From Mobula hypostoma (taxonomy: Eukaryota), in the NCBI RefSeq assembly GCF_963921235.1, contig NC_086097.1, forward strand, positions 25,422,001 to 25,486,000: a stretch of 64,000 nt of DNA, read 5' to 3'. The translations under genes and the position numbers were made by a program. The notes beneath the pieces are model-generated. The model worked only from the letters and a program-made list of their open reading frames with translations, ran no database searches and was not told the origin of the DNA. The stretch's first letter is position 1. The number at the start of each line of letters is the position of its first letter. Shown in pieces: positions 26,935 through 64,000 of the stretch.

Positions 26935-28071
26935 TATATTCATAAGATAAAGGTGCAATTTGGTGGGACCAAGAGACTGTTGTTTGTATATATAGCAAAC
27001 CGGATGCCACTGTAAGGTCATGCACGAGTACAACCTTCCCAACCATCAAGGACATCTTCAAAAAGGTGAATCCTCAAGAAGGCGGCGTCCATCACTAAGG
27101 ATCTCCACCAGTCAGGACATGTCCTCTTTTCATTACTACCATCAGGGAAGAGGTACAGGAGCCTGAAGATACACACTCAACATTTTAGGAACCGCTATTT
27201 CCTTTCTGCTATCAGATTTATGAATGGTTCATGACCCATTTTTTTGATTTATTTTATCTTATTTAGCAATGCAGTGCTGAGTAGGCCCTTCCAGCCTTTC
27301 CAGCCACGCCACGCCGCCCCACCCCAAAATCCATCAACCATCATTAACCCTAGCCTAATCAAGGGGCAATTTACCAAGACAAATTAACCTACATGGTACA
27401 TCTTTGGACTGAGGGAGGAAACCAGAACACCTGGAGAAAACCCAGGGATTTTCCAGGAATTCCTACCCTGAAGAAGTTTAAATCTTCCCTTCGACAGGAG
27501 TTCAGTGAAACCCTCTCTCACTGTGATCCCTGCTGCTCTCCAACTCTTTGACCACGTGCTTACCACCCATCGCCTTGTGTTTCTCCCTCCCCTCCCCCCA
27601 TCTTTTAAATCTACTCCTCAGCTTTTTGTTCTACAGTCCTCCCAAAGGATTTCAGCCCGAAACGTCAACTTGGACAGTTGCATTACTAGGTTGCTCACTA
27701 AAGTTGACCAGCAAGGAATTAAACAATAGGAAATATTAAAGATCAGCTTTATTTGTCACATCTACATTAAAACATACTCTGAAATAGGCTGCTTGCAGCA
27801 ATGGCCAACACAGTCCAAGGATGTGCAGAGAGAAGTCCACAAGTGTCACCATGTGTTTGGCACTAACGTAGGATGCCCACAGCTGGAGTCTGCAGGGAGC
27901 GCTCATGGAGTGAGGTCGCTTCTTTGGCTTCGCTCCATCCCCGTTATTCTTTTCAACCTTTGATCTCCTTGATCTAATCAACTTTAAGTACACCAGAAGA
28001 TTTATTTTATCTTCTTGATTTACTGATTAATTGATTTCCTTTCGTCAACTGCAAACCTCGAGTTTAGAGAA

Positions 28072-28932: not shown

Positions 28933-29770
28933 TACAGATACCCTCTCTTAATCTGTGTCGGGTGCTTCCAGCACCAATTCTTTTCTCTTCTGGTGTTTTC
29001 TTTATAAAATGAACCTCTTATTATCGCGTGAAGAAGGTTTATTTTAAGTCTAAGATTTTTGTTCTTTATTTACTACTATAGTTGTTACTCTATAACTTAT
29101 ATAGATTATTTATCTTCTGTAAATTAACATCAGTTTTTTTTAGTTAACCTTTTGTTTTAACTTTTCCTTTTTCGTTATTATTTATGATTTGATTCGACGA
29201 TCATTTTTAGTTATATGTTTCCTACTTTTGGTTTTTGCATAATCAAAATGGCGACTTGTCTTTCTTTTTGCTTAACCTCCTTTGTTTCTTTTTTGGGACG
29301 CCATGTTCCTATGCTTCTTCTTCCCATAATCCTTCTTTCATTTTAGAAGCGATTTTTTATTTATTCGTTTATAACTAATTATATGTACTGACTGCTTTTT
29401 TAATTTATATATTTTACTAATTTTTATTATGTAGATTAATTATTATATTGGTTATTTTTTACATGCATTAGTTTCTGGGAGATCTTTTATCTAACATATA
29501 TTTTTGGAGTTGCCCCCTGCAGAAATGGGTTTAGAATTAGTTTTAGTTAGAGCTTCCTTCAGCCATTTCTGGCTTAGTTCGGGGTTCTTGGGGATGGGGG
29601 GTGGGTCAGTCTTTTTCTTTTTTAATTTTTTCTATTGGGCTGTTTCAGAACTACCAAGATGTCCGCAGTGTCGAGATTTCCGGTTCCTCTCTAACCATGT
29701 ATTCCTCTTCCGGTTTTATGAGTTCACATTGTGGTTAACCCTTTTCTTAACAAAGGGTTAACTCTTAATT

Positions 29771-32700
29771 ATGGCTCATACTATTAATTTTGTTTCTTGG
29801 AACACAAATGGTTTAAACCATCCTATAAAACGGAAAAAGGTTTTCAAAGTGTTCCAAAGACTGAATGCTCATATTATTTTTGCACAAGAGACTCATGTAA
29901 GGAAAGAGGATAATCAACACTTCTTTAAGTTTTGGAAAGATAAACAATATCACTCAAATGCTCAAGCCAAAATCAAAGGTGTTTCAATTTTTATTGATCC
30001 TTCAATTACATTTATTCATCAAGACATTATTTTGGATCCTAATGGCAGATTTTTGTTCATTACTGGGGTACTTTTTAATAAAAAGGTTGCTATGGTGAAT
30101 GTTTATGCTCCGAATGTGGATTACCCTGAATTTTTTAAACAATTATTCACTTCCTTTCCTAACTTAAACAAGTATATGTTGATAATGGGTGGTGATTTTA
30201 ATTTATGTCTGAATCCCATGTTGGACAGATCCATAGCTAGTCCGGCTTTACCGAACAAGTCGGCTACTATTATTAATTCTTTTATGTTGGATTCTGGGAT
30301 TTTAGAAATTTGGAAATTTCTACATCCAAATGACAAGGAATTCTCCTTTTTTTCACATGTTCACCGTTCTTTTTCCCGAATTGATTATTTTTGATTGACT
30401 CCCGTTTGATTCCAGATGTACTTGATTGTAATTATGACAGTATTGTTATTTCAGATCATGCTCCACTGAAACTTTCCATCAAGTTAATGGACACCTCCTG
30501 TACTAGCCGACAATGGCGATTTAACCCTATTTTGCTTCAAGATCAAGATTTTGTCAAATTTATAAAGGAGCAGATCGATTTCTTTTTTTCAACTAATAAT
30601 ATGGACGAAGTTTCCAATGTAACTGTTTGGGATGCCTTTAAAGCTTATATCCGTGGTCAGATCATTTCCTATTCGGCTGGTTTGAAAAAACGTGTTAACA
30701 ATGAAATACTTTTGTTGGTTGATAAATTTAAAAAAGAAGTCGATAAAAAATATGCTATTTCTCCCAGTAAGGAGCTGTACAAACATAGAGTTGAACTCCA
30801 ATTGGAACATAGCTTATTATTAACATCCTCCATCGAAAATCAATTAATGAGAACTAGGAGTGATTTTTATATTCATAGCGATAAATCGGGTAAATTACTG
30901 GCTAACCATTTGAAATTTGATTCGGTTAAACGTCAAATTACTAAGATTCGTAAACAGGATGATACTTTCACAGTGGATCATGCTGGGATAAATCAAACCT
31001 TTCAAGAATTCTATACCTCTTTATATCACTCTGATTTTCCTCATGATTCTAATTTTATGCATGACTTTTTAAGTAAATTGAGTTTTCCGAAATTATCACC
31101 CGAAGAGTCCCTATCATTAGAAACTTCCATTTCAGAGGAAGAAATAATAACTGCAATCTCATCTTTGAATTCTGGTAAAGCACTCGGTCCGGATGGGTTT
31201 ACAGTGGAATTTTTTAATTTTTCTTCCTCCATTCTTTCCTCTAAGTTGTCTAGAATATTCAAGGAAGCAATCAGTTTAGGTAAATTACCACAATCGTTTT
31301 ATGAAGCCTCTATTTCCTTAATTCTTAAAAAGAATAAAGATCCTATTGATTGTACATCATACAGACCGCTATCTCTTTTGAATGTAGACTCTAAAATTTT
31401 TTCAAAAATTCTAGCAACTAGATTGGAGAAGGTGTTAGCTCAAATTATTTCTATGGATCAAACCGGATTCATTAAGAATCGCTGTTCATCCTTTAATATT
31501 AGGAGGTTAATGAATATTGTTTATACCCCTTCATTTACCACCCCGGAATGTACTATCTCTTTAGATGCTGAGAAAGCTTTTGACAGAGTCGAATGGCCTT
31601 ATTTATTTAATGTTCTTGAGAAATTTAATTTTAATTTGACATTTATATCTTGGATTAAACTGTTATATTACTCCCCGGTAGCCTCGGTTTGTACAAATAA
31701 TTATAGATCTCCCTTTTTTCGTCTTTTTCGTGGCACTAGGCAAGGTTGCCCTCTTAGCCCTTTGCTATTCAATATTGCTCTTGAACCTTTAGCAATTGCT
31801 ATTCGTAACTCGCCAAATATTGTTGGTATTACCCGTGGGAACGAAATACATAAGTTATCATTATATGCAGATGATTTGCTGCTATACATCTCTAACCCGG
31901 AGAAGTCAATTCCTGCTATTTTAGATTTGTTAGCTCAATTTAGTAACTTCTCTGGTTATAAATTGAATCTTAATAAGAGTGAATTATTCCCTTTAAATAA
32001 GCATGTACCTATTTATCGATTTTTACCATTTAAACTGGTTAATGATTCATTTATATATTTAGGGATAACAATTACGAAAAAATATAAAGATTTATTTAAA
32101 GCTAATTTTTTACCTTTAATTGATCAGATTAAACTGTTATTTACCAAATGATCGCCAATCTCTTTGTCTTTGATTGGTCGGATTAATGCTATTAAGATGA
32201 TCATTTTGCCTAAATTTTTGTATATATTCCAATCAGTCCCAATTTTCATCCCAAAATCTTTTTTTGATAATGTAGATTCAAAAATTTCCTCATATATTTG
32301 GCAGAATAAAAATCCTAGGTTAGGTAAAAGGTATTTACAGAAGTCTAAAAAGGAGGGGGGGCTTGCCCTCCCGAATTTTAGATTCTATTATTGGGCAATT
32401 AATATTCGATATTTAAAATTTTGGTTACGAGATTTGGACGTATCTTTAAACCCTCATTGGGTAAATCTTGAATCTAATTCATTACAAGGGCTTTCCTTGG
32501 GTTCGGTTTTAGGAACTTCACTTCCTTTTACTTCTTTTAAATTATATAAACAAATGAATAACCCAATAGTTAAGCATACTTTACGTATATGGTTTCAATT
32601 TCGAAGATTTTTTGGGTTCAATCAATTTATCCTATCAAGCCCTATCTTGTCAAACTTTCTTTTTCAACCTTCCACGATGGATCAAGCCTACTCTGATTGG

Positions 32701-33546
32701 AAAATTAAAGGTATAATATCTTTTCGCGATTTACTTATGGATAATTGTTTTATGTCTTTTGATCAACTTTCTAATAAATATAACTTACCCAGATCTCACT
32801 TTTTCAGATATTTACAGATTAGGAACTTTTTAATTACTCTTTCCCCTAATTTCCCACATCCATATCCAACGGATATTTTGGAAAAAATTTTAGATTTAAA
32901 TCTCTCTCAGAAAAGTGTTGTAGCAATCATATATGATATAATTTTGAATTTATGTCCTGATGCTTCTAATAAAATTAAAGCTGACTGGGAAAGAGAACTT
33001 GAGATTAATATACCGACTGAAAAATGGGAAAAAATTCTTCAGTTGGTGAATTCATCCTCTATATGTGCTAAGCATAGGCTGATACAGTTTAAAGTAGTGC
33101 ACAGGCCTCATATGTCCAAAGATAAACTATCTCGCTATTACTCTTATATTAATCCAATATGGGACAGATGTCATTCCGAGATAGCTTCTCTAACCCACAT
33201 GTTTTGGTCATGTCCCCTGTTGCAGAAATATTGGAAAGATATTTTTGATATTATTTCAACGGTTTTAAATATAGACTTACAACCTCATCCAATTACTGCT
33301 ATTTTTGGACTACCAATGATAGATTTAAATAATTTAACCTCTTCATCACGAAGAATGATTTCATTTCTTACTTTAATGGCCAGAAGGTCTATTTTATTGA
33401 ATTGGAAAGAGATTAACCCTCCTAAGGTATTTCATTGGTTTTCACAAACTATGCTGTGTTTGAATTTGGAGAAAACAGTTTATGACCCTTCCATCAAGTT
33501 TGAAAAAACTTGGAGGCCATTCATTCAGCATTTTCACTTAATGTAA
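29771..33546 (+). pseudogene. L1 ORF2 (EN-RT-CCHC) broken by one 1-nt frameshift and one nonsense codon
   Basis: SWNTNGL, QETH, GGDFN, SRIDYF|LID (T5 run at 30388-30392 is one T short), SDHAP, YRPLSLLN, LDAEKAFD, GTRQGCPLSP, YADD. In-frame TGA at 32149-32151. Knuckle reads WDRC...HMFWSC. Confidence 0.93.
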
Positions 33547-34677: not shown

Positions 34678-34949
34678 CTAAGAAGCAGAACATGGCAAGT
34701 GGGTGATCAACAGTTCCAGAAGCGTACACTACAACTTAACTCCACATAATCACACAGTTCTGTGAGCCTTGATAAAGTGAAATAACACATTCACAAAATA
34801 TGCTTTTCTTTATGTGAATATGTAAAAAAGTAAATTAAGGGGAAAAGACACTGACAAACATATTTCAAATGCAACGTGGCTGCTGAGATTCTCAAATTAC
34901 AACTGTGATTCTGTTTTCAATAAATATTGAATGACTAGTTTTGGATTAG

Positions 34950-35173
34950 ACACAAACAAGAGAAAATCTGCAGATACTGGAAATCCAAGCAACACACACA
35001 AAATGCTGGAGGAACTCAGCAGGCCAGGCAACATCTATGGAAAATAGTATAACCAACGTTAAGGACCAAGACCCTTCAACAAGACTGTGAAGGGTCTCGG
35101 CCTGGAACATCAACTGTACTCTTTTCTACAGATGCTGCCTGGCCTGCTGAGTTCCTCCAGTATTTTGTGTGTG
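34950..35173. mobile_element. 224-bp fold-back mini-element made only of two Penelope terminal-repeat ends
   Basis: ACACACAAAATGCTGGAGGAACTCAGCAGGCCAGGCA... pairs with ...TGCCTGGCCTGCTGAGTTCCTCCAGTATTTTGTGTGT. Perfect 14-bp TSD TAGTTTTGGATTAG at 34936-34949 and 35174-35187. Confidence 0.85.
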
Positions 35174-36659
35174 TAGTTTTGGATTAGTATTCAATTTTTA
35201 ATTTATGCAGGAGTAAGTCCAACTTATACTAATGAGAAAGGAAAATGGAACCCATCAGTCATTGTTTCTGTCATATTACAGAAAGTGTCAACCAATGAAT
35301 CTCACAATGGAGCATGTAGTTTTATTATTAAAATTATAATATGGGAAATAGGTTTCACCCTTGTATTAAATAAATTTTATTTTGCTGTTTGAGGCGACGC
35401 GAGGTATTATTTCAACTTGGGATCTGGTTTGTCAATGGAAAGTGACTGCCCCATCTCCACTTCTTCAACATCCAGGAGTAAACAAGAGGGCATTTAACAC
35501 GCGTGTGGTTACAATATGATGCGGTTGAAACATTTTTCATTAGAAGTCAGACTGTCTTCAAACTCTAAACTAAGTTGGAAGTCTATTTGATAAGAGAGAC
35601 TCTTGACCTCACAATTCAAGATTCAAGATTATTTACTGGCATTCTTCAGCACACAAGTATAAAGGAGAATGAAATGATTGTCACTCTGATCCAATGCAGC
35701 ATAAACACAATAAGCATAAAGAACACAGTAAAGAAATACAATAAATATAAAAACATAAGATTAGCTTATATAGCTAGACTAATTGCATGTTCATAAAGTA
35801 ACACTAGGCACAGGAGTATCTGTACATCAGGTGACTGTGACAGGTAATGAAAAGTCATGGGGTGAGTTAATGGGTGGAGGTGCCTCAGCGTGGCCCTTGC
35901 ACCATTCTGTCGACCCACACTGCACTTTTTCTGTAACTTTAACACTATATTCTACATTCTACTATTGCTTTTCCCTTGTACTACCTCGATGTACTGATAT
36001 GATGAAATGATCGGCAAGCAAAACTAAGATTTTCATTATACTTTGGTACATGTGACAATAATAAACCAATTATCAGTTTTAAGTGGGTTTCTTTGGCTTC
36101 ATTCTAAAGAATGGAAAATTAATTTTGCAAGAAACTTGCTGATACAGGGCTTAAAACATCAACTGTCCCTTGCCTCCACAGCTGCTGCCTGAGCTGCTGA
36201 GTTCCTCCAGCATTTTCCTTTTTGTTGCTCCACATTATAGCATCTTCATTCTCTTGTGTCTCAGTATCACTAAAACCTTCATTGTTTCTGTCATAACGAG
36301 TTCCAGCTCTCATACACACAAACTGGTTGGTATTTATTAAAGATTAGCTTTAATTGTCACATTTCATTGAAACACACAGTGAAATCCGTCATTTGTTTCA
36401 AATCAAATCAATGAAGATTGTGCTGTGCAGTTCGTAAGTGTCACCATGCTTCTGGCACCAACATAGCATATCCACAACTCACTATACAAAACCATACGTC
36501 TTTGGAATGTAGAAGGAAACTGCAGCACCCAGGAGAAACCCACGTGATCATGGGGAGAACATATATACTCCTTTATTTTGCTTTATTTTCTGCTTTTTTT
36601 GCTATATTACAATGGTCAACACAAGTTTTAAGTCTCTGTGTAGTAATCAGTTGTTAATT

Positions 36660-38370: not shown

Positions 38371-39982
38371 GTACAAGGTCTTCACTTCGATAAAACCAGT
38401 CTGAGGGGCTGAATGCTCTAATCCTGCTGCTGTGTTTTAAAGTGTTTTATCAGCCATAAACTGTTCTGAGATATCCTGCAGACACAGCGTAAATGATTTC
38501 TTTGACTTTTTCCCCAAAATTTGATCGAATGAAGGACTTATCTGATTATTCTGAAACCGTGCCATAAAAAAAACCAAAATCAAATTCTCTTGAAAATCAA
38601 ACAACTGCAGATGCTATAAATCAGAAATCGCAACAAAGTGCTGGCAATTCTCAGCAAGTCAGGCAGCTTCTGTGAAGGAAGTAAAAGAGTTAACATCTCA
38701 AGTCAGTGACCCCACACAACTGAAAAAGTGCCAAAACAAGCATGTTTTCACAATCGGTGCCGGGTGGGGGAGGATGAAGAGACCAAAGCGGATTTCTGGA
38801 TTAGAGTGAGGACCAATACTGAGTGACTAAATGCTTTTTGGGACATTTTTATAGGATTAATAATGGAAATTAGAGAGAGTATTAAAGAAAAACAAATAAA
38901 CATGCTAGAACCATACAAAATTATGAGAGGTACAGATAGGGTGAATGCAGATCAGATTAATTTATTTCTCACATGTACATTGAAACATATAGCGAAAAAC
39001 ATTATTTGCATTAACAACTAAAGCAGCCTAAGGGTGTGCTGGGGGAATCCCACAAGTGTCACCAAATATTCCAGTGCCAACACAGCATGCCCACAGGATT
39101 AAATATTTAAGGGAACCTGAGGGGGAACGTCTTCACGCAGAGGGTGGTGTAAGTGTGTTACAAGCTGCCAGCTTAAAGGGTAGATGCAGGTTCAATTACA
39201 ACATTTAAGAGAAGTTTGGATAGGTACGTGGGTGGGAGGATCTGGAGAGATATAGTCCAAGCGCAGGTAAGTGGGATTAGGCAGAAGATCAGGTCAGTAT
39301 GGACTCTTGTTTCTGTGCAATTGTATGCTATGTCTCCATATTTGTGACAGGCAGGACACAGCAGCTGCTGGAATCAGAAACAAGAGGGCTTAAAATAATG
39401 CTGGAAAGGCAGGCAACAATTGTAGACAGAGAAAAACTGAGGAATAGGTCACCATCGATCTTTCAGCCTTGACCTGAAACATCAACCATTCATTCCCTTC
39501 CTTAGATGCTGTATGACCTGCTGAGTTCCACCAGCATCCTGTGTGTGTGTCTATTGTTCTAACTGGGAGGAAAGAGGGCAAGAGAAAATGTGCAGGAGAT
39601 AGAGGAGATGCAGCTGAGAGCCCTGCCAACTTTGGTGAAGAAGAAAGGAAAACATCTTGGAAGTACTGACTGGAAATTCTCATCACCTGAACAGATGCGA
39701 TGGAGATGGAGAAAGTGTGAGCATGGAGTGGTTCATTAGTAGAAGCAGAGTGGGAGGAGGAGTAGTCTATGAACTAGAGAGCTCTAGAAGTCTTGTATCA
39801 TCTGAACCACCTTGTTCTCAACCCTAACATAACAGTCCCTTTGTACTCTCCATCCATCCTTCCCACTGTTAAAAGTATTCATACTGCAATATGAATACTT
39901 TAACCTGAAATTCTACTTAAGAACCACTAACCTGAAATATTAACACTGTTCCTTTTCTTCTTTCACCAATAATTGCCCTTAC

Positions 39983-40984
39983 CTTTAATGCACTGATGGT
40001 ATTTTCTAGTTTATCCTGTTCTTCTTGAACTTGCTTAAGTACTTCCTGCATTTTCTTCTCATGCTTATTTCTTAGACTCTGCATCTCTGATTTGACATCC
40101 GCAAGTTCCTTTTTGTGAGCATCCTTCTCCAACTTCAGCTGGTTGCTGAAGGAATCAATCTCTTCCCGGGCCAGGGTATGCCTCACTTGGGATTCTGAGA
40201 GTCTCTTCTTAATCTCCTTCTTAGAGCTCTCTTCTTGAGTCAGTTTAGCACTGAGCTCAGATCGAATGGTATTCAGCTCGGTGATTGTTTGCTGCATTTC
40301 CAAGAGCTTCTCCTGGCCTCTCTCATGCTGATCCTTCAGCATCATCAGTTCCTCCACGAGCTGCTGCTTCTCCTCTTTGGCCTTAGTGTGCAACATGCAC
40401 TCCTCATGCACGTCGGCACCCAGCTTGCGTACACACTCCCTGGCATCCCGCAGTTCACCGTCCAGGTGCAGCAGCCTCGACTTCAGCTCATTGAGCTCCA
40501 CGTCCTTCCTTCGGATGTCCTCTTCCTGCTGCACTCGTTTCAAGATGATATCATTGAGCTCCCTACGGAGGCTCTCCATCTGCTGCAAGGAGGCATCGTG
40601 TTGCCCCTGGAGCGCATCTTTCTCTTTACTCACACGGTTATGCTGTTCCATCCACTGATCGACAGCCTCCTTCTGCCTCTCCACGTCACGCTCCAATTTC
40701 TTGCATTTCACTTTCCACTGTCTGATGGACTCCTGAGCCTTTATCTTCAATTCATCCCTCCTCTTTTCACTCTCCTGTCGAAGGAGTTCGACCTCTTTCC
40801 ACTGAGTCCTGAATCTTTCAGCCTCTTCATTAGACTCTTTTAATTGACGGGATAAGTCCGCAATTTCCAAACCTGTAGATTTACGATCTTGCATGCAGTC
40901 TTCATAACATTTCTGGATTTCTTGAAGTTGGTTCAACATCCTCAGCTGTTGTTTCTCTCTCTTCGCCAGGTCTGAGCTGAGAAC
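39983..40984 (-). CDS. CEP128: CEP128 (centrosomal protein 128 kDa) large internal coiled-coil coding exon, 1002 nt, phase 0-0
   Basis: Stop-free frame inside ORF 39917-40999. Acceptor ttttttgttgtgtccaaAG|GTTCTC, donor TTAAAG|GTaagg. Peptide ...KRRDELKIKAQESIRQWKVKCKKLERDVERQ...QLKLEKDAHKKEL...ENTISALK matches my recollection of vertebrate CEP128 (LKAQESIRQWKLKHKKLER). Confidence 0.92.
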
Positions 40985-41084
40985 CTTTGGACACAACAAA
41001 AAAATGTCATCAGTATACTGCTTCCAGCTGGCAGCAACTCATAGCAACTACCCATTCAGGCATCTGAATATCCGTGATGAAATA

Positions 41085-44909: not shown

Positions 44910-46755
44910 CAAGAGAAAATCTGCAGATGCTGGAAATCCAAGCAACACACACAAAATGCAGGAGGAACTCAGCAGGCCAGCCAGCACAGTCGATGTTTCA
45001 GGCCGAGCCCCTTCAGCAGGACTGGAGAAAAAAGGATGAGGAGTCGAGCTAAAAGGTGGGGTGAGGGAAGGGAAAATCATGGGAAGGGGAGGGGTGAAGT
45101 AAAGAGCTGGGAAAGTGATAGGTGAAAGAGAAATAAGGCTGGCGAAGGGGGAATCCAATAGGAGAAGACAGAAGGCCACAGAAAAAGAAAAGCGGTGGAG
45201 GAGCACCAGAGGGAGGCGATGGCCAGGCAAGGCGATAAGGTGAGAGAGGGGAAAGGGGATGGGGAATGGTGAAAGCAGGGGCGAGCCATTACCGGAAGTT
45301 TGAGAAATCAATGTTCATGCCAGCAAGTTGGAGGATACCCAGACAGAATATAAGGCATTGTTCCTCAAACCTGAGTGTGGCTTCATCGCGACAGTAGAGG
45401 AGGCCATGGATAGACATATCGGAATGGGAATGGGAAGTGGAATTAGAATGGGTGACCACTGGGATATCCCGCTTTTTCCAGCGGGTGGAGCATAGGTGCT
45501 CAGCAAAGTGGTCTCCCAATCTATGCCGGCTGTCACCGGGAGCACCAGACACAGTGCTCTCAATTCTCTCAGTTCTTCCGTCTCCACTGCATCTGCTCTC
45601 ATGATGAGGTTTTTCATTCCATAACGAAGAAGGTGTCCTCCTTTTTCAAAGAAGGTGGCTTCCCTTCCTCCACCATCAATGCTGCCCTCAAATACATCTC
45701 TTCCATTTCACACGTCTGCTTTTACCCCATCCTCCCGCCACCCTACCAGTGATAGGGTTCCTCTTGTCCTCACCTACCACCCCACCAGCCTCCGCGTCCA
45801 GCACATAATTCTCCGGAAATTCCACCATCCCCTATGGGATTCCACCACCAAGCACACCTTCCCCCCACTCCCACCACCTCCCCACTTTCTGCTTTCCACA
45901 GGGATTGCTCTCTATACAACTCCCTTGTCCATTCATCCATCCACACTGATCTCCCTCTAGGCATTTATTCTTGCAAGCAGAACAAGTGCTACATCTGCCC
46001 CTACACTTCCTCCCTTACTACCATTCAGGGCCCCAAACAGTCCTTCCAGATGTGGCTACACTTCATCTGTGAGTCTATTGGGTCATATACTGTGTCCGGT
46101 GCTCCCGATGTGGCCTCCTGCATATTGGTGAGATCTAATGTAGATTGGGAGACAGCTTCACTGAGCACCTACATTCTGTCCAGCAGAAAAAGAGTGATCC
46201 CCCAGTGACAACCCATTTTAATTCCACTTCCCAATCCCATTCCCACTCTGATATGTCTATCCATGGCCTCCTCTATTGTCGCGATGAGGCGACACTCAGG
46301 TTGGAGGAACAACACCTTATATTTCATCTGGGTAGCCTTCAACCCGATGGCATGAATATTGATTTCTCAAACTTCTGGTAATGGCCCCACTGCCACCTTC
46401 ACCATTTCCCATCCCCTTTTCCCTCTCTCATCTTATCTTCTTGCCTGGCCATCGCCTTCCTCTGCTGCTCCTGCCCACCTTTTCTTTCTTCCATGGCCTT
46501 CTGTCCTCTCCTATTCGATTCCTCTTCTCCAGCCTCGTATCTCTTTCACCAACAACCTCTGAGTTCTTTACTTCACCCCTCCTCCTCCTCCCGGTTTCAC
46601 CAATCACCTTGTGTTTCTTCCTCACCTCCTCTCACCTTTTAACTCTACTCCTCATCTATTTTTGTCCAGTTCTGCTGAAGGGTCTCGGCCTGAAACATCA
46701 GCTGTACTCTTTGCCATGGGTGCCACCTGGCTTGCTGAGTTCCTCCAGCATTTTG
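44910..46755. mobile_element. Penelope-like element: minus-strand arm 44910-45555 fused head-to-head to a longer plus-strand copy 45556-46755
   Basis: GIY-YIG C-terminal fragments on both strands (ORFs 45289-45552 -, 46145-46381 +). Linker motifs SQFFRL..ICS, RVPLVLTYHP, C..NKCYICP. TSD TTTGGTTC(G/A)CTAA at 44897-44909 and 46756-46768. Confidence 0.87.
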
Positions 46756-48153
46756 TTTGGTTCACTAATTTCCTTTGAGAAGGGAAATCAGCTATCCTTC
46801 TCTAGTCTGGACAATGTGTGATCAATGTGTTTGAAACCTATCGAATATTGGAAGACCTAAACGTGGAGAGGATGTTTCCAACAGTGGGACAGTCTAGGAC
46901 CAGAGTGCACAGCCTCAGAACACAAGACATCCCTTTCAAACAGAGATAAGGAGGAATTTCTTTAATCAGAGTGTACTGAATCTGTGAAATTCATTGCCAC
47001 AGGAGACTGTGGAGCCAAGTCACTGGGTATATTTAAAGTGAAGGTTAATCGGTTCTTGATTAGTAAGGGCATCTAATGTCACGGGAAGAAGGCAGGAGAA
47101 TGGGGTTGAGAGGGAAAACTAAATCAGCCATGATAAAATGGTGGAATAGACTCAATGAGCCAAATAGCCCAATTATATTCCTGTGTCTTATGGTCAATGA
47201 ACTGTTTCCCCAGTTCAGGGCAAATTAGAAACAGTCAATAGGCATCAGTATTGGTATTCACGTTGTTTTGAATTTATAATTTGCACCATTTGTTCCCCAT
47301 TGTATCTTGGATGTTTGTCAGAATTTGTTAAGTATAGTTTTTCATAAATTCTGTTCTCTTTATTTCCCTGTAAATCCCAGCAAGTAAATGAATCTCAAGA
47401 TAGTACATGGTAACATATAGATAGATAGATAGATATACTTTATACATATATGTACTTTGATAGTAAATTTACTTTGAACTTTGATCCTGTGAATGAATAA
47501 ATTAGCAATTGACTACGGTATGAAATGTGAGTAAGAGGAGGAATAATATGATGGCTTCAGCATTTGCATTCTGAAGGTAACTGTGTGCAGAAGATCATAC
47601 TCAATCTCTGAGGCTGTCTGATCAAACTACATTTATTTCTGGAGGCCCAACAAGTTAATTATTTAACTTCTATTATTAGAATTTGTAGAAGTTGGACATA
47701 AAAGAATAGTTATATGGAGGACTAACAAGACACTCACAGTGAAAGTCAAAGTTGAGCTTGTTGTCATATGCATAAGCACACGTATGAAAACCTTAACTTG
47801 CAGCAGTATCAAAGACACGCAACGACAGATACACAACATCCGCAAGAAAAACAAATTAACAAATTATAAAAGAATGAAAACAAATAAAACAAAAAAGTCC
47901 ATTGTAGTCCATTCCAGTGGCCCAATCAGCAGCAGGAGCAGGCTACAGCAACAAAGTTTCTTGCAAGTCAGTGATGCTTATTTAAAAGTACAGAAGGGAC
48001 AAGCGGGGCAGCCGTTGTTGGGAGTAGGCCAGTGGTGAGAGTGTCAGGCTTTGGCTCAAAGGAGGCTTCAGCTCAAAAGAGGCGTTAGCTCTGGGTAAGC
48101 TTCTATTAAGGTTCCCTTTTTTTCTCTCTTACTGTACCTAGTGTAGCAAATGG

Positions 48154-51100
48154 GATAAAAGAGGCACGACTGCGCAGGCACGTGACCTCAGAGCACGGAA
48201 GGCTTAAAAAGGGAAGCAATCTTCAACATTCTTTATCCGATTCACAGCAAGCAGGCAGCGGAGTAAGTTGCTGTTTTTCGGGAGAAAATTCAGATTTTTT
48301 TTAACTACTTGGGATAAAAGAGGCACGACTGTGCAGGCGCGTGACCTCAGAGCGCGCAAGGCTTAAAAAGAACACCGCCATATCAAGCAGGCAGCGTCGG
48401 AGCTGGCAACGGAGTGAGAGGGTGCAGGGTGATAGGGCTTTGGCTCAATGGGCTTAGGCGGAAACAGGAAGAGACTTCCTGCGACCAATGAGTCTCATAG
48501 TAAAGGGGTAGGTTACAGGTTTATTTATTTAGTAATAACAGTAGCATTAGAGGTATGCATCTAGGATTAGTGTTGTGCATGGAGTGCCAGATATGGGGAC
48601 ACTGGGAGACTCCCAGCCTCCCCAAGGATTACATCTGCACCAGGTCCATTGAGATGAGGCTCCTTAAGGACCATGTTAGTGATCTGGAGCTGCAACTTGA
48701 TGACCTTCAGCTAATTAGGGAAAGTGAGGAGGTGATTGATTATACCTATATAGAGATAGTGGACAGCATCTCTGTGACAGTCCGCCTCAGAAATCGATAT
48801 ATCGTTTTAGATACTGTTGGAGAGGTTGACCTGACAGGAAGACCACAGCGAACGGGACTCTGGCACTCTGCCCAGTGCCGTGATCAAGAGAACAAGGAAA
48901 AATGCAGTAGTTACAGGGGATTCTATAATGAGAGGAACAGAGAAGAGATTCTGCGAGCTGGACAAGAATACCCTGATGGTGTGTTGCCTCCCTGGTGCCA
49001 GGGTACGGGATGTCTCAGATCGGGTCCAGAGTATTCTGAGGAGAGAGGGCGAGCAGCCAGAAGTCTTGGTACGTGTTGGTACCAATGACATAGACAGAAA
49101 AAGAGAGGAGGTCCTGAAGGAAGATTACTGGGAACTAGGAAGAAAATTGAAAAGCTGGACCTCCAGAGTAATAATCTCAGGATTACTGCCTGAGCCACGC
49201 GCTAATGAAGGTAAGAATAGCAGAATTAAGCAGATGAATGTGTGGCTAAGTAACTGGTGCAGGGGGCAGGGCTTCAAATTTTTGGATCATTGGGATCTAT
49301 TTTAGAATACAGAACACAGAACATAGAATAGTACAGCACATTACAGGCCCCTCGGCCCACAATGTTGTGCCGACCCTCAAACCCTGCCTCCCATATAACC
49401 GCCCACCTTAAATTCCTCCATATACCTGTCTAGTAGTCTCTTAAACTTTACTAGTGTATCTGCCTCCACCACCGACTCAGGCAGTGCATTCCACGCACCA
49501 ACCATTCTCTGAGTAAAAAACCTTCCTCTAATAACCCCTTGAACTTCCCACCCCTTACACTTCCCACCCCTTACCTTAAAGCCATGCTCTCCTGTATTGA
49601 GCAGTGGTGCCCTGGGGAAGAGGCGCTGGCTATCCACTCTACCTATTCCTCTTAGTATCTTGTACACCTCTATCATGTCTCCCTCATCCTCCTTCTCTCC
49701 AAAGAGTAAAGCCCTAGCTCCCTTAATCTCTGATCATAATGCATACTCTCTAAACCAGGCAGCATCCTGGTAAATCTCCTCTGTACCCTTTCCAATGCTT
49801 CCACATCCTTCCTATAGTGAGGCGACCAGAGCTGGACACAGTACCCAAGCGTGGCCTAACCAGAGTTTTATAGAGCTGCATCATTACATCACAAGTCTTA
49901 AATTCTATCCCTCAACTTATGAAAGCCAACACCCCATAAGCTTTCTTAACTACCCTATCTACTTGTGAGGCAACTTTCAGGGACCTGTGGACATGTACCC
50001 CCAGATCCCTCTGCTCCTCCACACTACCAAGTATCCTGCCATTTACTTTGTACTCTGCCTTGGAGTTTGTCCTTCCAATGTGTACCACCTCACACTTCTC
50101 TGGGTTGAACTCCATCTGCCACTTCTCAGCCCACTTCTGCATCCTACCAATGTCTCTCTGCAATCCTCGACAATCCTCTACACTATCTACAACACCACCA
50201 ACCTTTGTGTCGTCTGCAAACTTGCCAACCCACCCTTCTACCTCCACATCCAGGTCGTTAATAAAAATCACGAAAAGTAAAGGTCCCAGAACAGATCCAT
50301 GTGGGACACCATTAGTCACAACCCTCCAATCTGAATGTACTCCCTCCACCACGACCCTCTGCCTCCTGCAGGCAAGCCAATTCTGAATCCACCTGGCCAA
50401 ACTTCCCTGGATCCCATGCCTTCCGACTTTCTGAATAAGCCTACCATGTGGAACCTTGTCAGATGCCTTACTGAAATCCATGTAGATTACATCCACTGCA
50501 CTACCCTCATCTATATGCCTGGTCACCTCCTCAAAGAACTCTATCAGGCTTGTTAGACACGATCTGCCCTTCACAAAGCCATGCTGACTGTCCCTGATCA
50601 AACCATGATTCTCTAAATGCCCAGAGATCCTATCTCTAAGAATCTTTTCCAACAGCTTTCCCACCACAGACATTGGTCTATAATTACCCGGACTATCCCT
50701 ACTACCTTTTTTGAACAAGGGGACAACATTCACCTCCCTCCAATCCTCCAGTACCATTCCCATGGACAATGAGGACATAAAGATCCTAGCCAGAGGCTAA
50801 GCAATCTCTTCCCTCACCTCGAGGAGCAGCCTGGGGAATATTCCGTCAGGCCCCGGGGACTTATCCGTCCTAATGTATTTTAACAACCTCAACACCTCCT
50901 CTCCCTTAATATCAACATGCTCCAGAACATCAACCTCACTCATATTGTCCTCACTGTCATCAAGTTCCCTCTCATTGGTGAATACCGAAGAGAAGTATTC
51001 ATTGAGGACCTCACTCACTTTCACAGTCTCCAGGTACATCTTCCCACCTTTATCTCTAATCAGTCCTACCTTCACTCCTGTCATCCTTTTGTTCTTCACA

Positions 51101-54100
51101 TAATAGAAGAATGCCATGGGGTTTTCCTTTACCCTACTCGCCAAGGCCTTCTCATGCCCCCTTCTTGCTCTTCTCAGCCCTTTCTTTAGCTCCTTTCTTG
51201 TTTCCCTAAATTCCTCAGTAGACCCATCTGATCCTTGCTTCCTAAACCTCATGTATGTTGCCTTCTTCCACCTGACTAGATTTTCCACCTCACTTGTCAC
51301 CCATGGTTCCTTCACCCTACCATTCTTTATCTTCCTCACCGGGACAAGTTTATCCCTAACATCCTGCAAAGAGATCTCTAAACATCGACCACATGCCCAT
51401 AGTACATTTCCCTGCAAAAACATCATCCCAATTCACACCCGCAAGTTCTAGCCTTTTAGCCTCATAATTTGCCCTTCCCCAATTTAAGATTTTCCTGTCC
51501 TCTCTGATTCTATCCTTTTCCATGACAATGCTAAAGGCCAGGGAGCAGTGGTCACTGTCCCCCAAATGTTCACCCACTGAGAGATCTCTGACCTGACCCG
51601 GTTCGTTACCTAGTACTAGATCTAATATGGCATTACCCCAGTCGGCCTGTCAACATACTGTGACAGGAATCCGTCCTGGACACACTTAACAAACTCTGCC
51701 CCATCTAAACCCTTGGAACTAATCAGGTGCCAATCAATATTAGGGAAGTTAAAGTCACCCATGATAACAACCCTGTTATTTTTGCACCTTTCCAAAATCT
51801 GCCTCCCAATCTGCTCCTCTGTATCTCTGCTGCTACCAGGGGGCCTATCGAATACCCTCAATAGAGTAACTGTTCCCGTCCTGTTCCTGACTTCCACCCA
51901 TACTGACTCAAAAGAGGATCTTGCTACATTACCCACCCTTTCTGTAGCTGTAATAGTATCCCTGACCAGTAAGGCCACCCCTCCTCCCCTTTTTCTGCCC
52001 TCTCTATCCCTTTTAAAGCACTGACATCCAGGAATATTGAGAATCCATTCCTGCCCTGGTGCCAGCCAAATCTTTGTAATGGCCACTACATCGTAATTCC
52101 ATGTATGTATCCAAGCTCTCAGTTCATCACCTTTGTCCCTGATGCTTCTTGCATTGAGGTACACACACTTTAGCCCTTCGCCTTACTACCTTTACATCCT
52201 TTATTCTGCTTCTCTTTCCTCAAGACCTCTCTATATGTCAGATCTGGCTTTACTCCATGCACTTCTTTCACTGCTCTATCGCTCCGGATCCCATCCCCCT
52301 TGCAAATTAATTTAAACCCTCCTGAACCATGCTAGCAAACCTACCTGCAAGGATATTGCTCCCCCTCGAGTTCAGGTGTAACCCATCCAATCTGTACAGG
52401 TCCCACCTTCCCCAGAAGAGATCCCAATGATCCAAAAATCTAAAACCCTACTCCCTGCACCAACTCCTCAGCCACGCATTCAACTGCCATCTCCTCCAAT
52501 TCTTACCATCACTGTCACATAGCACTGGCAGCAATCCTGAGAACGCCACCCTTGAGGTCCTGTTCTTCAGCCTTCTGCCTAGTTCCCGAAACTCACACTT
52601 CAGGACCTCATCCCTCTTCCTGCCTATGTCGTTGGTACCAACATGTATCACGATTTCTGGTTGCATTCCCTCTCATACCAGGATGTTGTGCACTTGGTCA
52701 GAGACATCCCGGACGGACCCTTTGGGGAGGTATGACTTATACAAAAATGATGGGTTACACCTGAACTCAAAGGGTACTAATATTCTGGTGGGATTGTTTA
52801 ATATAGCTGTTAGGGAGGGTTTAAACTAAGTTGGCAGGGGGAAGAAAACCAAGGTGTTAGGGTCGAGGAAGAGGAAAATAGAAATAAGTCAAGGATACTG
52901 TGCAGCAAAGATGGCAAGAAGGACAGGCAGGTGAATAGATTTGCTGTGATAATTTGCTGTGCAGTAGAAATATAGCAAAATCGGTAATAGATACTGATCT
53001 AAATATACTGTACTTAAATGCACGCAGCATTAGAAATAAAGTGGATGACCTTGTTGTACAGCTACAGGTTAAAAGATATGACATTGTGGCCATCACCAAG
53101 TCACGGCTAAATGATGGATGTGATTGGGAGCTGAATGACCAAGGGTACACAGTGTATAGGAAAGATGGGAAGGTAGGTAAAGGGGGTGGCGTGGCCCTGA
53201 TGGTAAGCAACTATATCAAATCACTAGAAAGAAGGGACATCAGATCAGAAGAGGTAGAATCCTTATGGGTCGAGTTAAGAAATGGCAAGGGTAAAAAGAC
53301 ACTAATAGCAGTTATATACAGGCCTCCAAACAGCAGCCGGGATGTGGACTACAAGTTACAGCTGGAAATAGAAAAAGCGTGTCAGAAGGAAAATATCAAG
53401 ATAATTATGGGGGATTTTAATATGAAAGTGGATTGGGAAAGTCAGGAAGGTACTGGATCTCAGGAGAGGGAGTTTGTAGAATGCCTACGGGATGGCTTTT
53501 TGGAGCAGCTTGTCCATAAGCCCACTAGGGGACCGGCTGTTTTGGATTGGGTGCTGTGTAATGAACCTGAGGTGATTAGAGAGCAGGAGGTAATGGAACC
53601 CCTTGGAAGTAGTGATCATAATATGATTGAGTTCAGTTTCAAATTTGAAAAGGAGAAACTGGTATCAGATATTTCAGTGGAACAAAGGAAATTACAGTGG
53701 TATGAGAGAGGAACTGGCCCAAGTCGATTGGAAAAGTAAGCTAGATGGAGGGACGGTAGACCAGTATTGGATGAATTTCCTACAAGAAATAAGGAAAGTG
53801 CAGGAAAAATATATTCCAAGAAAAAAGAAAATCATGAATGGAAAAATGGCACAAATGTGGCTAACGAGAGAGGTTAAGGCTAAAATAAAAGCAAAAGAGA
53901 AGCAAAAATTAGTGGGAAAACTGAGGACTGTAAGTTAGAAACTTACAGAAGGAAACTAAGAAAGTCATTAGGAAAGAAAAGATGAATTATGAAAGGAAGT
54001 TGACAATTAACATAAAAAAGGATACTAAGAGTAAAAGAGTGACACGGGTAGATATAGGACCGATTGAAAATGATGCTGGAGAAATTATAATGGGTAACAA

Positions 54101-55364: not shown

Positions 55365-57937
55365 AAATGGCTGTTTTGTGTTCTTCATGCCAGATGGTGG
55401 AGTCCTGGGAGACCCAGAGTCTCCCAGGGAACTACATTTGCATGAAGTGCAGAGGACACAGACTCAGAATACAAGAACATCCCTTTACAACAGAGATGAG
55501 CAGGAATTTCTTTTGCCAGAGGGTGGTGAATCTTTGTACTTCAATGCATCTTGAATTATATTGGATTAATTATTTTGTTTTACATATGTGCTCTGTGTGA
55601 TACAGTAGATGTATTGTAGATGTACCATGGTCCAGAGGAATGTTGTGTCATTTGGTTTGCAATAAACTTGATGACAATACACTTGAACTTGAATTCATTG
55701 CCACAGATGGTTGTGGGGGCCAGTCATTGGGTATATTCAATAGCTTTTTATTAGCAAGGGTGTCAAAGGTTATGGGGAGAAGGTAAGAGAATGGCATTTA
55801 GAAAGATAATAAATCACACATGAAGGAACGATGGAGCAGACCCAATGGGCCATATTCCCTTATTCTGCTCATGTGTCTTATGATCTCAGATCTCTTTAGG
55901 CCACCTGCTTATTCTTTCAATTGATGCAGAGAGAATAAAAAATGTTACCAAACAACCCAATTGTCTAAAATCTAAATTGGTAAATTGGTTTATTACCTAG
56001 TTACATTCCTACCAACTACCGGGCATTTCTACCCAGACTGGAGCTCTAAACATAGCTTCAGAGGGACAATAAAACCACAGAGCTTTTAACCACCATTTGA
56101 CTGAGTTGAGTCTTAAATCACAGGAGCTTCAGGACCCACACACCAGGTTTTGGAACAGTTATTATCCCTCAACCATCAGGCTCTCGAACCAAGGGGGATA
56201 ACTTCATAACCTATGGACTCACATTCAAGGACTCTTCATCTCATGTTTCCGATATTTATTGCTTGCTTGTTTGTTTGTTTGTTTGTTTGTTTATTTATGT
56301 TTTTTCTCTTTTGTATTTGCAGTTTGTTCTCTTTTTTAGTTGGTGTCTGTCCTGTTGTTGGGCACAGTCTTTCACTGATTGTATTATGTGTCTTGGATTT
56401 ACTATGGATGCTCACAAGAAAATGAATCTCAGGGTTGTATATAATGACATTTAAGTACTTTGATACTTGTAAACATACTATTGCCCCCTTCCCACTCTCA
56501 ACGCTCAATAGGGACCCATATCAGAATCAAATTTATCATCACTCAAGTACGTCATGGATTTTTTTTTGTTTTATTGCAAGAGTACAGTGCAATACATAAA
56601 ATTACTACAGTACTGTGCTACAGTCTTAGGCACCTAGCTCTATATATGTGCCTTAGACCTTTGCACAGCACTGTAGATTAGAAGAAAAGGTTTAATTCTT
56701 CAAAAAAGCACTGAAATAAATTATGCTTTGATCTTGATTCTCAGTGAGGTTTGCTTGCATCTTTGAAACCATTTCCCCAAATGATTGGAAATTTGTTTAA
56801 TTATTCTAGCATCTGAATCATAATATACGATACAGAAGGCACCAACAGCGTCTGAAAGCCTGTATGGACCGGTGAGTCTTTTCCACTTATCACTACTCAT
56901 CACATGCTCATATTTATTTTGGCTCTCAGCAGAACATCAAATGTGTCGAGTAATTTGATTTTCCTTTTCCTAATATTAGTTGTAGCCAAGAATAATGTAT
57001 TTAATGACAAATTAATAGCACCCTCTAAGAGGATAATGAGAATAATCAGCTAAAGTAATTGTTGCTCTTATTCGTTGAATTACAGGCTAAATTCCGCATG
57101 GGAGAGAATATTAATTATCCACACATGTTGATAACTAATCAGTTTCCCGGGGTGGGGGGGGGAATTAATTTGTAGCAAGGAAGCCAAAGAGGCCCTGTTG
57201 TTCCTCAAGCCCCAAACAGATAGAAAATGCAAAAATCTGTTCAGATGCAAAGAATAAGACTCTAATTCCAATGTTTAGCAGTTGCCCACTGAGGTATTAT
57301 CTCAAAAAACACAGCAACATAATTGGACCATGAAAGATGTTTGCCCAGAAAATAGACAATGTTGAGCAAATGTTTTATGCCAAACTTCTTATTAAGGCCA
57401 TTATATGCACATAAGACCATACCAGCAATGATTTATTATTTTCACGTACCTACAATATTTAAAAACCAGGACAAGTACATAGTAAAGTTGATAGAGTAAT
57501 TAAGAAGATGTGGGCTGTGTTGATCTTCATTAGTTGGGGAATTGAATTCAAGAGCCACAAGGTAGTGTTGCAGCTCTATAAAACCCCAGTTAGACCACAC
57601 TTGGAATATTGTGTTCAGTTTTGGACATCTCATTATAGAAAGGATGTGGAAGCTTTAGAGAGGCTGCAGAGGAGATTTACCAGGATACTGTCTGGATTAG
57701 AGGGCATGTCTTATGAAGACAGGTTGAGCAAGTTAGGGCTTTTCTCTTTGGAGCAAAGCAGGATGAGAGGTGACTCGATAAAGATGTACAAGATGACAAA
57801 AGACTTAGATTGAGTGCCTAGCTGGAAACTTTTCCCAGCCCAGAAATAGCTAAATCAATGGGGCATTATTTTAAGCAACACACATCAAAGTTGCTGGTGA
57901 AAGCAGCAGGCCAGGCAGCATCTCTAGGAAGAGGTAC

Positions 57938-57973
57938 AGTCGACGTTTCAGGCTGAGACCCTTCGTCAGGATT
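57938..57973 (-). ncRNA. Minimal type I hammerhead ribozyme motif in Penelope terminal repeat (on the CEP128 pre-mRNA strand)
   Basis: Minus strand: aauc-CUGACGA-AGG gucucag CCU-GAA-ACGU-C-gacu. Intact core, 3-bp stem II, palindromic ACGU in place of stem III, GUC cleavage triplet, one mismatch in stem I. Confidence 0.7.
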
Positions 57974-58956
57974 AACTGAAGGAAGCGTTAGTAAGAGATT
58001 TGAAAGTGTGAGGGGGAGAGGGAGATCCAAAATGATAGGAGAAGACAGGAGGGGCAGGGATGGAGCCAAGAGCTGGGCAGGTGATTGGCAAAGGGGATAT
58101 GAGAGGATCATGGGACAGGGGGTCCGGGAAGAAAGACAAGGTGGGGGGGGGAACCCAGAGGATGGGCAAGGGGTATAGTCAGAGGAACAGAGGGAGAAAA
58201 AGGAGAGTGAGAGAAAGAATGTGTGTATAAAAATAAATAATGGATGGGGTACAAGGGGGAGGCAGGGCATTAGCGGAAGCTAGAGAAGTCGATGTTCACG
58301 CCATCAGGTTGGAGGCTACCCAGACGGAATATAAGGTGTTGTTCCTCCAACCCGAGTGTGGCTTCATCTCTACAGCAGAGGAGGCCGTGGACAGACATGC
58401 CAGAATGGGAACAGGACGCGGAATTAAAATGTGTGGCCACTGGGAGATCCCGCCCCCTCTGGCGGACAGAGCGTAGGTGTTCAGCAAAGCGGTCTCCCAG
58501 TCTGCGTCGGGCCCCGCCAATATATAGAAGGCCACATCGGGAGCACCGGACGCAGTATATCACCCCAGCCGACTCACAGGTGAAGTGTCGCCCCACCTGG
58601 AAGGACTGTCCGGGGCCCCAAATGAGATGGCGTGAACATCGACTTCTCTAGCTTCCGCTAATGCCCCGCCTCCCCCTCGTACCTCATCCGTTATTTATTT
58701 TTATACACACATTCTTTCTCTCACTCTCCTTTTTCTCCCTCTGTCCCCCTGACTATACCCCTTGCCCATCCTCTGGGTTTCCCCCTCCCCTTGTCTTTCT
58801 CCCCGGACCTCCTGTCCCATGATCCTCTCATATCCCCTTTGCCAATCACCTGCCCAGCTCTTGGCTCCATCCCTCCCCCTCCTGTCTTCTCCTATCATTT
58901 TGGATCTCCCCTTCCCCCTCACACTTTCAAATGTCTTACTAACTCTTCCTTCAGTT

Positions 58957-58992
58957 AGTCCTGACGAAGGGTCTTGGCCTGAAACATCGACT
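58957..58992 (+). ncRNA. Minimal type I hammerhead ribozyme motif in Penelope terminal repeat
   Basis: AGUC-CUGACGA-AGG gucuugg CCU-GAA-ACAU-C-GACU. Perfect 4-bp stem I; palindrome decayed ACGU>ACAU (CpG-type change). Confidence 0.65.
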
Positions 58993-59302
58993 GTACCCCT
59001 TCCTAGAGATGCTGCCTGGCCTGCTGCGTTCACTAGCAACTTTGATGTGTGTTGCTTGAATTTCCAGCATCTGCAGAATTCCTGTTGTGGGCATTATTTT
59101 GAGCTGATTGGTGGAAAGTATAGTGGAAATGACAAAAGCAAATTCTTCAGAGAAAGAGTGGGTGCATGGAATGCCCTGCCAGGGGTGGTGGTAGAGGAAG
59201 ATACATTAGGAACATTCAAGAAACTCTTAGATAGGCACATGGATAATAAAAAAAATGGAGGGCTATGGAGGAGGGAAGGGTTAGACAAATCTTAGTTTAG
59301 AG

Positions 59303-63139: not shown

Positions 63140-63770
63140 AGGGAATAGAAGAGGGAAGGGGGAGGGAATTTTTTTTTCCCAGAAGGAGAAATTGATGTTC
63201 ATGCCATCAGCTTGGAAGCTATGCAGACGGAATATGAGGTGTTCCTCATTCACCCTGAGAGCCTCAATGTGGCAAAAGAGGAGGCTTTGGGGATAGGATG
63301 TCAGAATGGCAATGGGGATAGGAATTAAAATGGTTGGCAACTGGGAAGTTCCACCTCTTGGCAATTGGAGTGGAGGTGCTTAGCAAAGCGATGCCTTTTA
63401 TCACTACGAGGCCACTTTCAGGATGGAGAAACAACACCTCAAATTCTGTCTGGGCAGCCTCCAACCTGATAGCATGAACATCAATTTCTCCTTCTAGTTT
63501 AAAAAAAAATTCCCTCCCCCTCCCCTCTTCTTATTCTTTTTCTCCCATGATCTATTCCCCTCTCCTATCAGATTCCTTCTTCTCCGGCCTTTTCCCTTAC
63601 TCACCCACCTGGCTTCACCTATCATTTTCTAGCTAGTCCTCTTTCCCTCTGCCATCTTCTTCCTTTCTTTCCAGTCCTGAAGAAGAGTCTTGACAAGAAA
63701 CATTGACTGTTTATTAATTTCCATAGATGCTGCCTGACCTACTGAGTTCCTCCAGCATTTTGTGTGCATT
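63140..63770. mobile_element. Penelope-like inverted fragment pair
   Basis: Minus-strand EEHLIFRLHSFQADGMNINFS followed by a plus-strand copy ending CAGTCCTGAAGAAGAGTCTTGACAAGAAACATTGACTG and the terminal repeat. Confidence 0.72.
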
Positions 63771-64000
63771 TCTCTTTAAGTTGTGTGGTGCATTCTCTTA
63801 TAAACTATCAGTTTGGTCAGAAGGAAATGCAAGTGTAAAGAAATAAACTCGAGACTTACATTGAAACATGTTGAGAGGATTAGTGGCCAATTACTTATCT
63901 GCATCCAACAGACTTGTCCATACACAAAAAAAAACACAAAACAAACTGAGAATTGGATTTCTGGATAATTCCATTGATCTCTCTATACTCAACCCAGTCG

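Follow-up and report, generated by a model that had tools for sequence, protein, structure and literature searches.

Which feature of a retroelement insertion with inverted ends and a hammerhead ribozyme motif on each strand deserves attention is the question raised by a locus of the ray Mobula hypostoma (NCBI RefSeq assembly GCF_963921235.1, contig NC_086097.1), situated within a stretch of 64,000 nucleotides (nt) of the forward strand (positions 25,422,001 to 25,486,000) that was analysed as a whole and is referred to here as the window, its own numbering being used throughout. The element is a fold-back insertion of the Penelope type at 57873..59088, and a first-pass annotation, made from the sequence alone, had described it as placing a potentially cleavable ribozyme on the pre-mRNA of the host gene CEP128. 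According to our analysis, the story of a ribozyme in an intron is ordinary, and a strand-specific tract of A-to-G changes matters more. On balance, the locus is probably a truncated Penelope-like element (PLE) with an inverted end and inert hammerheads, into which ADAR wrote the A-to-G tract before reverse transcription.

The unit consists of a 5'-truncated main copy on the minus strand, with a shorter inverted copy and a tail at the 5' end of the main copy. The left arm (57873..58305, minus strand, 433 nt) holds the last 35 nt of the open reading frame (ORF) and the pseudo-long terminal repeat (pLTR)/3' untranslated region (UTR) of the main copy, and is tail-less; the right arm (58626..59057, plus strand, 432 nt) is the inverted, 5'-truncated copy, and is followed by a 31-nt PLE tail that belongs to this copy only (59058..59088, plus strand), tails of 30-40 bp being known from PMC3846280 and PMC8557442. 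The arms are 94.7% identical over 433 positions, with 22 substitutions and 1 indel, and enclose a spacer of 320 nt (58306..58625) that forms the fold-back loop and represents the unpaired portion of an endonuclease fragment. Sequence comparison identified a target-site duplication (TSD) of 12 bp at 57861..57872 and 59089..59100 (both plus strand), which is exact and reaches 16 bp if one mismatch is allowed. The arms of about 430 bp, the 320-bp spacer and the 12-bp TSD given in the first-pass annotation were thus borne out by measurement, and the tail of the right arm, the GIY-YIG fragment of the spacer and the A-to-G tract had gone unnoticed.

The tract occupies 58263..58619 on the minus strand, which is the sense strand of the element, and at least 19 of its 81 ancestral As are changed to G; 16 of these sites are supported by family reads, 13 by proteins and 10 by both. 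For this, the locus was compared with assembled contigs from four sequencing runs, two of DNA and two only guessed to be of RNA, whose contigs carry no information on expression, editing or cleavage. Among the 40 differences from the family contigs that were listed, out of 179, 18 lie within 58262-58625; sense-strand A-to-G changes account for 16 of them, and the remaining two are C-to-T changes beside an edited A. The family base at the 16 sites accounts for 90-99.8% of depth in DNA run X1, which may be the source sample. The comparison with proteins is independent of which differences were listed, and it revealed, over 117 columns, 15 amino-acid changes against 7 ray proteins, of which 13 contain an A-to-G change, 1 a G-to-A and 1 an A-to-T, and none a T-to-C. 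Changes that require A-to-G only make up 11 of the 15, compared with 23/189 in 17 control segments (7 proteins and 10 window segments; Fisher p=5e-7), and in 58 further PLE proteins, each compared with its own majority, they never exceeded 4. The residues affected are kept by 52-54 of the 58 relatives. From the age of the copy about 2 A-to-G changes would be expected (P=7e-10 for 16).

Over the whole stretch, C>T differences outnumber G>A in all four runs (46/25, 45/26, 36/22 and 38/15), and the excess of 14-23 per run is close to the 16 sites in the spacer, which is present in a single orientation; because the G>A totals are low, the outer arms can hardly contain many additional shared edits, and the boundary of the tract is inferred on this basis. 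Polarisation rested on reads and proteins, since the older copies in the window, against which 15/63 A>G changes were counted, are confounded by CpG decay (7 false-looking T>C). The tract is dense, of a single type and on a single strand, the pattern that defines an ADAR hyper-edited cluster. In a literature search that covered titles and the beginnings of abstracts, with most subscription papers and all supplements outside its scope, no paper was identified that describes such a tract in genomic copies of PLEs. In this one copy, the tract is an unusual mutational scar in an otherwise ordinary fold-back.

The arms provide the timing. Three A-to-G changes internal to the arms (58632, 58651 and 58668) are common to both, and all 11 ancestral-A sites of the arm overlap agree between the arms, 3 changed and 8 unchanged (p=0.0015 if the arms were independent); being identical in both arms, these changes are likely older than the insertion. 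Furthermore, the tract created 8 new CpGs, 3 of which have since decayed to TG, and at 58263-58264 the CG is kept in the right arm and has become TG in the left, so that the sequence of events can be read from the arms and an assembly error is less likely. The changes are thus part of the germline DNA and of some age. We consider with good confidence that the tract is real and predates the insertion.

As to its cause, ADAR editing of the sense RNA of the element is favoured, although not strongly. The sense transcript would have been double-stranded across the endonuclease region and then edited from adenosine to inosine (A-to-I); by analogy with PMC11167929, the enzyme of the element would then have cut both target strands and primed at two internal start sites, which would leave one tailed and one tail-less end. 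Both arms would derive from one edited sequence, either a single RNA copied twice or a source locus in which the edits were already fixed, and neutral decay of about 2.5% per arm would have followed the insertion. Two fold-backs of the window have arms over the endonuclease end (45285-45523 with 46141-46385, and 63169-63261 with 63415-63507), and fold-backs of this coverage would be the kind of source that supplies the needed duplex. The present hairpin, too, might plausibly be edited or diced. We hold only tentatively the combined claim that hyper-editing of Penelope sense RNA by ADAR has left a germline fossil in this copy and that, in addition, both arms come from one edited molecule. A TATA-like AT run was also observed at 58226-58240 on the plus strand, the antisense strand of the element, at a distance of about 30 nt from the final A-to-G site; the motif at 58226-58233 contains AATAAA and is absent from older subfamilies, and it could start an antisense RNA near the end of the tract, a proposal to which we give little weight.

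Comparable processes have been described elsewhere. Hyper-editing is abundant in the elephant shark, a cartilaginous fish (PMC5625713), and proviruses of avian retroviruses with A-to-G changes have been described (PMC12925331): in RAV and ALV proviruses, dense one-strand A-to-G changes appear in DNA after reverse transcription, as here, and are ascribed to ADAR acting on inverted-repeat RNA (PMC12925331). In contrast to those proviruses, the present copy is a germline, non-viral retroelement, with about 23% of its As changed and not nearly 50%, and without an evident ADAR context. The APOBEC-edited LTR retrotransposons (PMC4866542, PMC2873906) likewise represent hypermutated copies fixed in a vertebrate genome; however, their changes are G-to-A, from deamination of the cDNA, whereas those described here are A-to-G, and the word ADAR is absent from PMC4866542.

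Several observations weigh against editing by ADAR. A strong depletion of G upstream of hyper-edited sites has been reported in all species groups (PMC5625713), and here no depletion is seen: G precedes 5/19 changed and 19/62 unchanged As (p=0.48, in a small sample), and if ADAR leaves 8% of sites with a 5' G, an assumed figure, 5/19 has p=0.015. Only 2/15 UA sites are changed, and the enrichment of a 3' G is weak (7/19 compared with 12/62, p=0.11). Among the 40 of 179 differences listed, none is a shared A-to-G change in the outer 390 nt of either arm, a gap that counts against ADAR because a fold-back source RNA should be double-stranded there. Gene conversion between the arms could also produce shared changes; 16/19 sites lie inside the loop of this very locus, so that a locus-specific process could explain them; and the alleles, from one copy only, were taken from the assembly and not from raw reads. 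The missing neighbour bias of ADAR is, in turn, what would be expected if the tract had arisen by error-prone DNA synthesis at insertion, through incorporation of G against a template T as the second strand was filled in from the inner junction, or through reverse transcription with an unbalanced nucleotide pool, and the tract does begin 6 nt from the junction and extends outward on both arms. We nevertheless judge this origin unlikely: independent synthesis of the arms should not yield the same 3/11 sites (p=0.0015), there is no enrichment after A or T (6/28 compared with 13/53), and changes at 23% of As far exceed ordinary polymerase error. Somewhat less likely still is a copy derived from a minor source locus or subfamily that was already mutated, in which case the origin of the A-to-G bias could not be assigned. 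The arms share two differences from the family that are not A-to-G (58009/58921 and 58077/58853), so the source had private changes; but non-family bases reach only 0.2-0.3% of depth at 58512, 58514 and 58263, which leaves no sizeable subfamily, the residues hit are conserved in 52-54/58 relatives, and a strand-specific A-to-G process would still be required one round earlier. GC-biased gene conversion or a transcription-coupled mutation bias in the CEP128 intron after insertion is very improbable. For CEP128 the minus strand is the non-template one, and an A-to-G excess is expected on the non-template strand of transcribed genes; however, conversion bias should give as many T-to-C changes (0/15 amino-acid changes), of the 11 polarisable arm-private changes among those listed only 2 are minus-strand A-to-G changes, no such excess is found in four older copies within CEP128, and the sites common to both arms changed from A to G on a different genomic strand in each arm, which largely refutes it.

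The last alternative concerns function in the host: that the minus-strand hammerhead cleaves the CEP128 pre-mRNA, with the inverted arm regulating it, as the first-pass annotation had envisaged. Cleavage of this pre-mRNA is unlikely, and the whole regulatory scheme has only a slight probability. The gene is indeed present: an ORF at 39917-41038 (minus strand) has 100% identity over 90% of its length to a Mobula ray CEP128 protein, and mapping of protein P0001 to the window placed one exon, coding for amino acids 400-733, at 39983..40984 (minus strand), and another, for amino acids 734-788, at 34677-34513 (minus strand), with no exon for amino acids 1-399 mapped anywhere in the 64 kb. Read along the minus strand, the element is followed after 16.9 kb by the acceptor of the exon for amino acids 400-733, and it is likely within the CEP128 intron upstream of this large exon, a position that we infer. 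As the element is intronic in a minus-strand gene, the minus-strand hammerhead would be the one in the pre-mRNA; in addition to lying on the CEP128 strand, it is alone among 16 aligned window copies in having both CUGANGA and GAAACGUC. This preservation is explained by the youth of the copy, and other evidence speaks against cleavage: stem I of the minus copy has a mismatch, the modelled double-hammerhead helices amount to -0.3 kcal/mol compared with -65.5 for the arm duplex, no intact partner exists among the other aligned minus-strand copies, the family ends in the gene show no strand bias (11 plus, 9 minus, p=0.82), and monomers of such ribozymes are inactive and the Anolis ribozyme protein-dependent, as reported in PMC4209133 and PMC11167929. 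The label of a potentially cleavable ribozyme is accordingly weak, and editing before reverse transcription, set out above, remains our preferred reading of what is particular to this copy.

The motifs themselves are of a known kind. The pattern CTGANGA-N8-20-GAAACRTC has 2 exact matches in the window, one per arm as previously noted, at 57942-57969 (minus) and 58961-58988 (plus), against a chance mean of 0.01 and at least 2 matches in 0/100 shuffles. The minimal type I hammerhead on the minus strand (57936..57975), with a predicted cut between 57942 and 57941, has the core and the ACGU palindrome intact, and in this the first-pass annotation was correct; it missed the A-C mismatch at 57972 that disrupts stem I, which is 5 bp long, at its central pair, and the G10.1-U11.1 pair that closes stem II, in place of G10.1-C11.1, in both copies. 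The mismatch is private to the copy: across the four runs, the family base G makes up 89, 94, 99 and 99% of the depth at 57972, and the G-C pair is found at this position in 12/16 aligned window copies. The second minimal hammerhead (58955..58994, plus strand) has stem I intact and has lost the palindrome through a change of G16.2 to A (ACAU) at 58986. Both have the CUGANGA and GAAA core, the UH cleavage triplet and an extra base after A9; neither has all the features of minimal hammerhead ribozymes (min-HHRs), and the palindrome is present in the minus copy only. An Rfam scan gave no hammerhead among 8 matches at E<=10.

Compared with the min-HHRs of PLEs described by Cervera and De la Pena (2014, PMC4209133), the copies are alike in the short helix I, the extra nucleotide after A9, the absence of a helix III loop and the palindromic positions 15.2-16.2, and unlike them in a helix II of 4 bp closed by G-U and in a private lesion in each copy. 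Conservation of the core over its flanks within the family, one of the two conditions on which the first-pass annotation had made its proposal depend, is not observed: 107/144 positions (74%) of the core are kept in 14 other window copies compared with 184/238 (77%) of the flanks (p=0.54). Pairing of helix I, which has 4-5 bp in this class and is intact in the plus copy and interrupted in the minus copy, is kept in 75% of cells across the 16 window copies, and covariation in the hammerhead stems of these 16 copies is not above that of shuffles. Since the core is no better kept than the flank and the stems lack covariation above shuffles, the motif is read as inherited from the active element and as decaying once inserted. 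The masking of the ribozyme by the inverted arm, also proposed earlier, is supported by folding: in the minus strand all bases of 57933-57978 except 3 mismatched ones are predicted to pair with the other arm (p>=0.95), the full minus strand has a predicted folding energy of -1013 kcal/mol, the motif again pairing with the opposite arm, and the same pairing is predicted in a transcript that ends just past the motif. The predicted hammerhead helices reach -1.4 (minus) and -7.6 kcal/mol (plus), the modelled minus-minus dimer -0.3, and the local duplex of the minus motif with the antisense arm -65.5 kcal/mol. In the CEP128 pre-mRNA the antisense arm would be made first, and the hammerhead would be zipped into the long duplex on emerging. 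No cleavage was seen for monomers of metazoan min-HHRs (PMC4209133), and the Anolis PLE ribozyme cleaved only with the protein of the element, with no cleavage ends in RNA-seq (PMC11167929). Hence the hammerheads are very probably inert in host RNA.

Some further observations were made around the motifs. About 20 nt downstream of the cut site, most aligned pLTR copies have a pyrimidine run followed by YAG and ATG (here 59000-59011, plus, and 57920-57931, minus), a pattern that resembles a 3' splice site ahead of a start codon, and in this copy TACTAAC, a pyrimidine run and CAG precede the motif (58937-58954 and 57976-57993). Introns in the 5' UTR of PLEs are known (PMC8557442), and on the minus strand the splice-like signals could be cryptic CEP128 acceptors masked by the hairpin. 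The two runs guessed to be RNA each contain an opposite-strand joint 57948/58368, which was not counted in the two DNA runs; it may be the junction, at the hammerhead, of another, expressed fold-back. About 400 contigs per DNA run cease matching at 57971, the 5' edge of the hammerhead, so that many family members share only the part from motif to tail, either with other UTRs or as short copies. A 20-nt pLTR pattern found at 27 loci in metagenome contigs had no match past about 28 nt, and was dropped as chance.

Regarding identity, the element is almost certainly a PLE, as previously assigned. At 58270..58623 (minus strand) it encodes the C-terminal part of a Penelope-like ORF, a 5'-truncated GIY-YIG endonuclease fragment of 117 amino acids and a stop, which is 84% identical to the ray PLE protein P0094 (E=1.4e-52); the Pfam GIY-YIG match is weak (E=0.012, below the curated cut-off), as it is in relatives, and the CxxC, YIG and two His typical of CCHH-type endonucleases are present in the translation. 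The telomerase-like reverse transcriptase (RT) that precedes the endonuclease in such elements has been truncated away from this copy, and relatives have RT-type sequence upstream (P0114, RVT_1 E=0.0077). The CX2-5CxxC linker, also truncated off here, occurs in P0094-P0098, P0106, P0114 and the window copy at 45756-46208; a linker of this kind before GIY-YIG characterizes Neptune and Nematis (PMC8557442), and because close relatives carry it the family appears, from sequence, to be Neptune-like. The inverted pLTR, the tail at one end and the short TSD are the typical layout of PLEs (Arkhipova 2013, PMC3846280; Craig 2021, PMC8557442), with a 31-bp tail and TSDs of 9-10 bp in PMC3846280; the layout of endonuclease-containing insertions is identical here, and no A-to-G tract is described in the passages of those papers that were examined. 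Pairs of min-HHRs on opposite strands, 100-700 bp apart, were already known in metazoan PLEs (PMC4209133). As in Poseidon PAc of Anolis (Frangieh 2024, PMC11167929), the ends differ by the tail, and in that system two internal RT start sites were found and the ribozyme is dispensable and protein-assisted; in contrast to PAc, the family here appears Neptune-like by its linker, and the target is not ATT-centred, as far as the TSD shows. A non-LTR retrozyme was also considered and rejected, as it needs tandem direct repeats each with a hammerhead (bioRxiv 10.64898/2026.07.22.740005) and the motifs here are inverted and flank coding sequence. Element, layout and ribozyme motif all belong to known kinds.

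Both junctions of the insertion are matched by exact contigs in X1; no pile-up of starts or ends was listed, and no empty-site joint was found among the best 15 of 1887 joints listed from the contigs of the four runs. The summed contig depth of about 10^6 within the element, compared with 13-16 at the junction contigs, indicates a very large family and is not a copy number. Within the window there are 20 family ends, 11 on the plus and 9 on the minus strand, and other fold-backs are present: two hammerhead-bearing ends joined at the motif at about 34936-35187, with a 14-bp TSD candidate; an older Penelope fold-back of about 1.86 kb at about 44910-46768, with RT-thumb, linker and endonuclease sequence, arms that include the endonuclease end and an 8-bp TSD candidate; another at about 18597-20177; and one at about 63147-63774 whose arms comprise only the endonuclease end plus some 30 nt of UTR, the left arm being apparently interrupted by another repeat. 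A TSD candidate of at least 8 bp was found in 3/7 other pairs tried and none in 4/7. An inverted-end fold-back is thus the usual and ordinary product of Penelope insertion, and is common in the window.

The target was itself a repeat, the 3' end of an old long interspersed nuclear element (LINE), presumably CR1-like, at 57463..57872 (plus strand); it is 79% identical over 233 nt to 49887-49657, which adjoins an RT-like ORF, and likely resumes after 59100, continuity across the TSD being presumed. Other features of the window include a near-full-length L1-like element at 28027-33546 (plus strand), antisense to CEP128, with ORF1, endonuclease, RT and a few stops; ORF pieces at 48835-49305 (minus) and 52431-52829, which we take to be esterase-like, upstream of LINE endonuclease/RT fragments; and a short, perfect-looking hairpin at 56595-56690, with weak miRNA model matches below gathering scores, which is probably a repeat resembling a miniature inverted-repeat transposable element.

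The strand that is reverse-transcribed and the origin of the arms are unsettled points of the PLE mechanism, and the tract bears on both. If editing made it, the sense RNA was the strand reverse-transcribed, and both arms are tied to one template; a sense template, if true, agrees with the in vitro work on PAc and conflicts with the antisense-template proposal of PMC3846280. The tract would, in addition, be a mark left by the host on a class of retroelements for which our literature search found no report of editing. In that case, the strand and extent of such tracts across the genome would show the sense of the PLE template and how the inverted pLTR forms, whether editing of fold-back transcripts kills daughter copies, and whether it feeds the as yet unexplained variability in sequence among PLE hammerheads to which PMC4209133 points.

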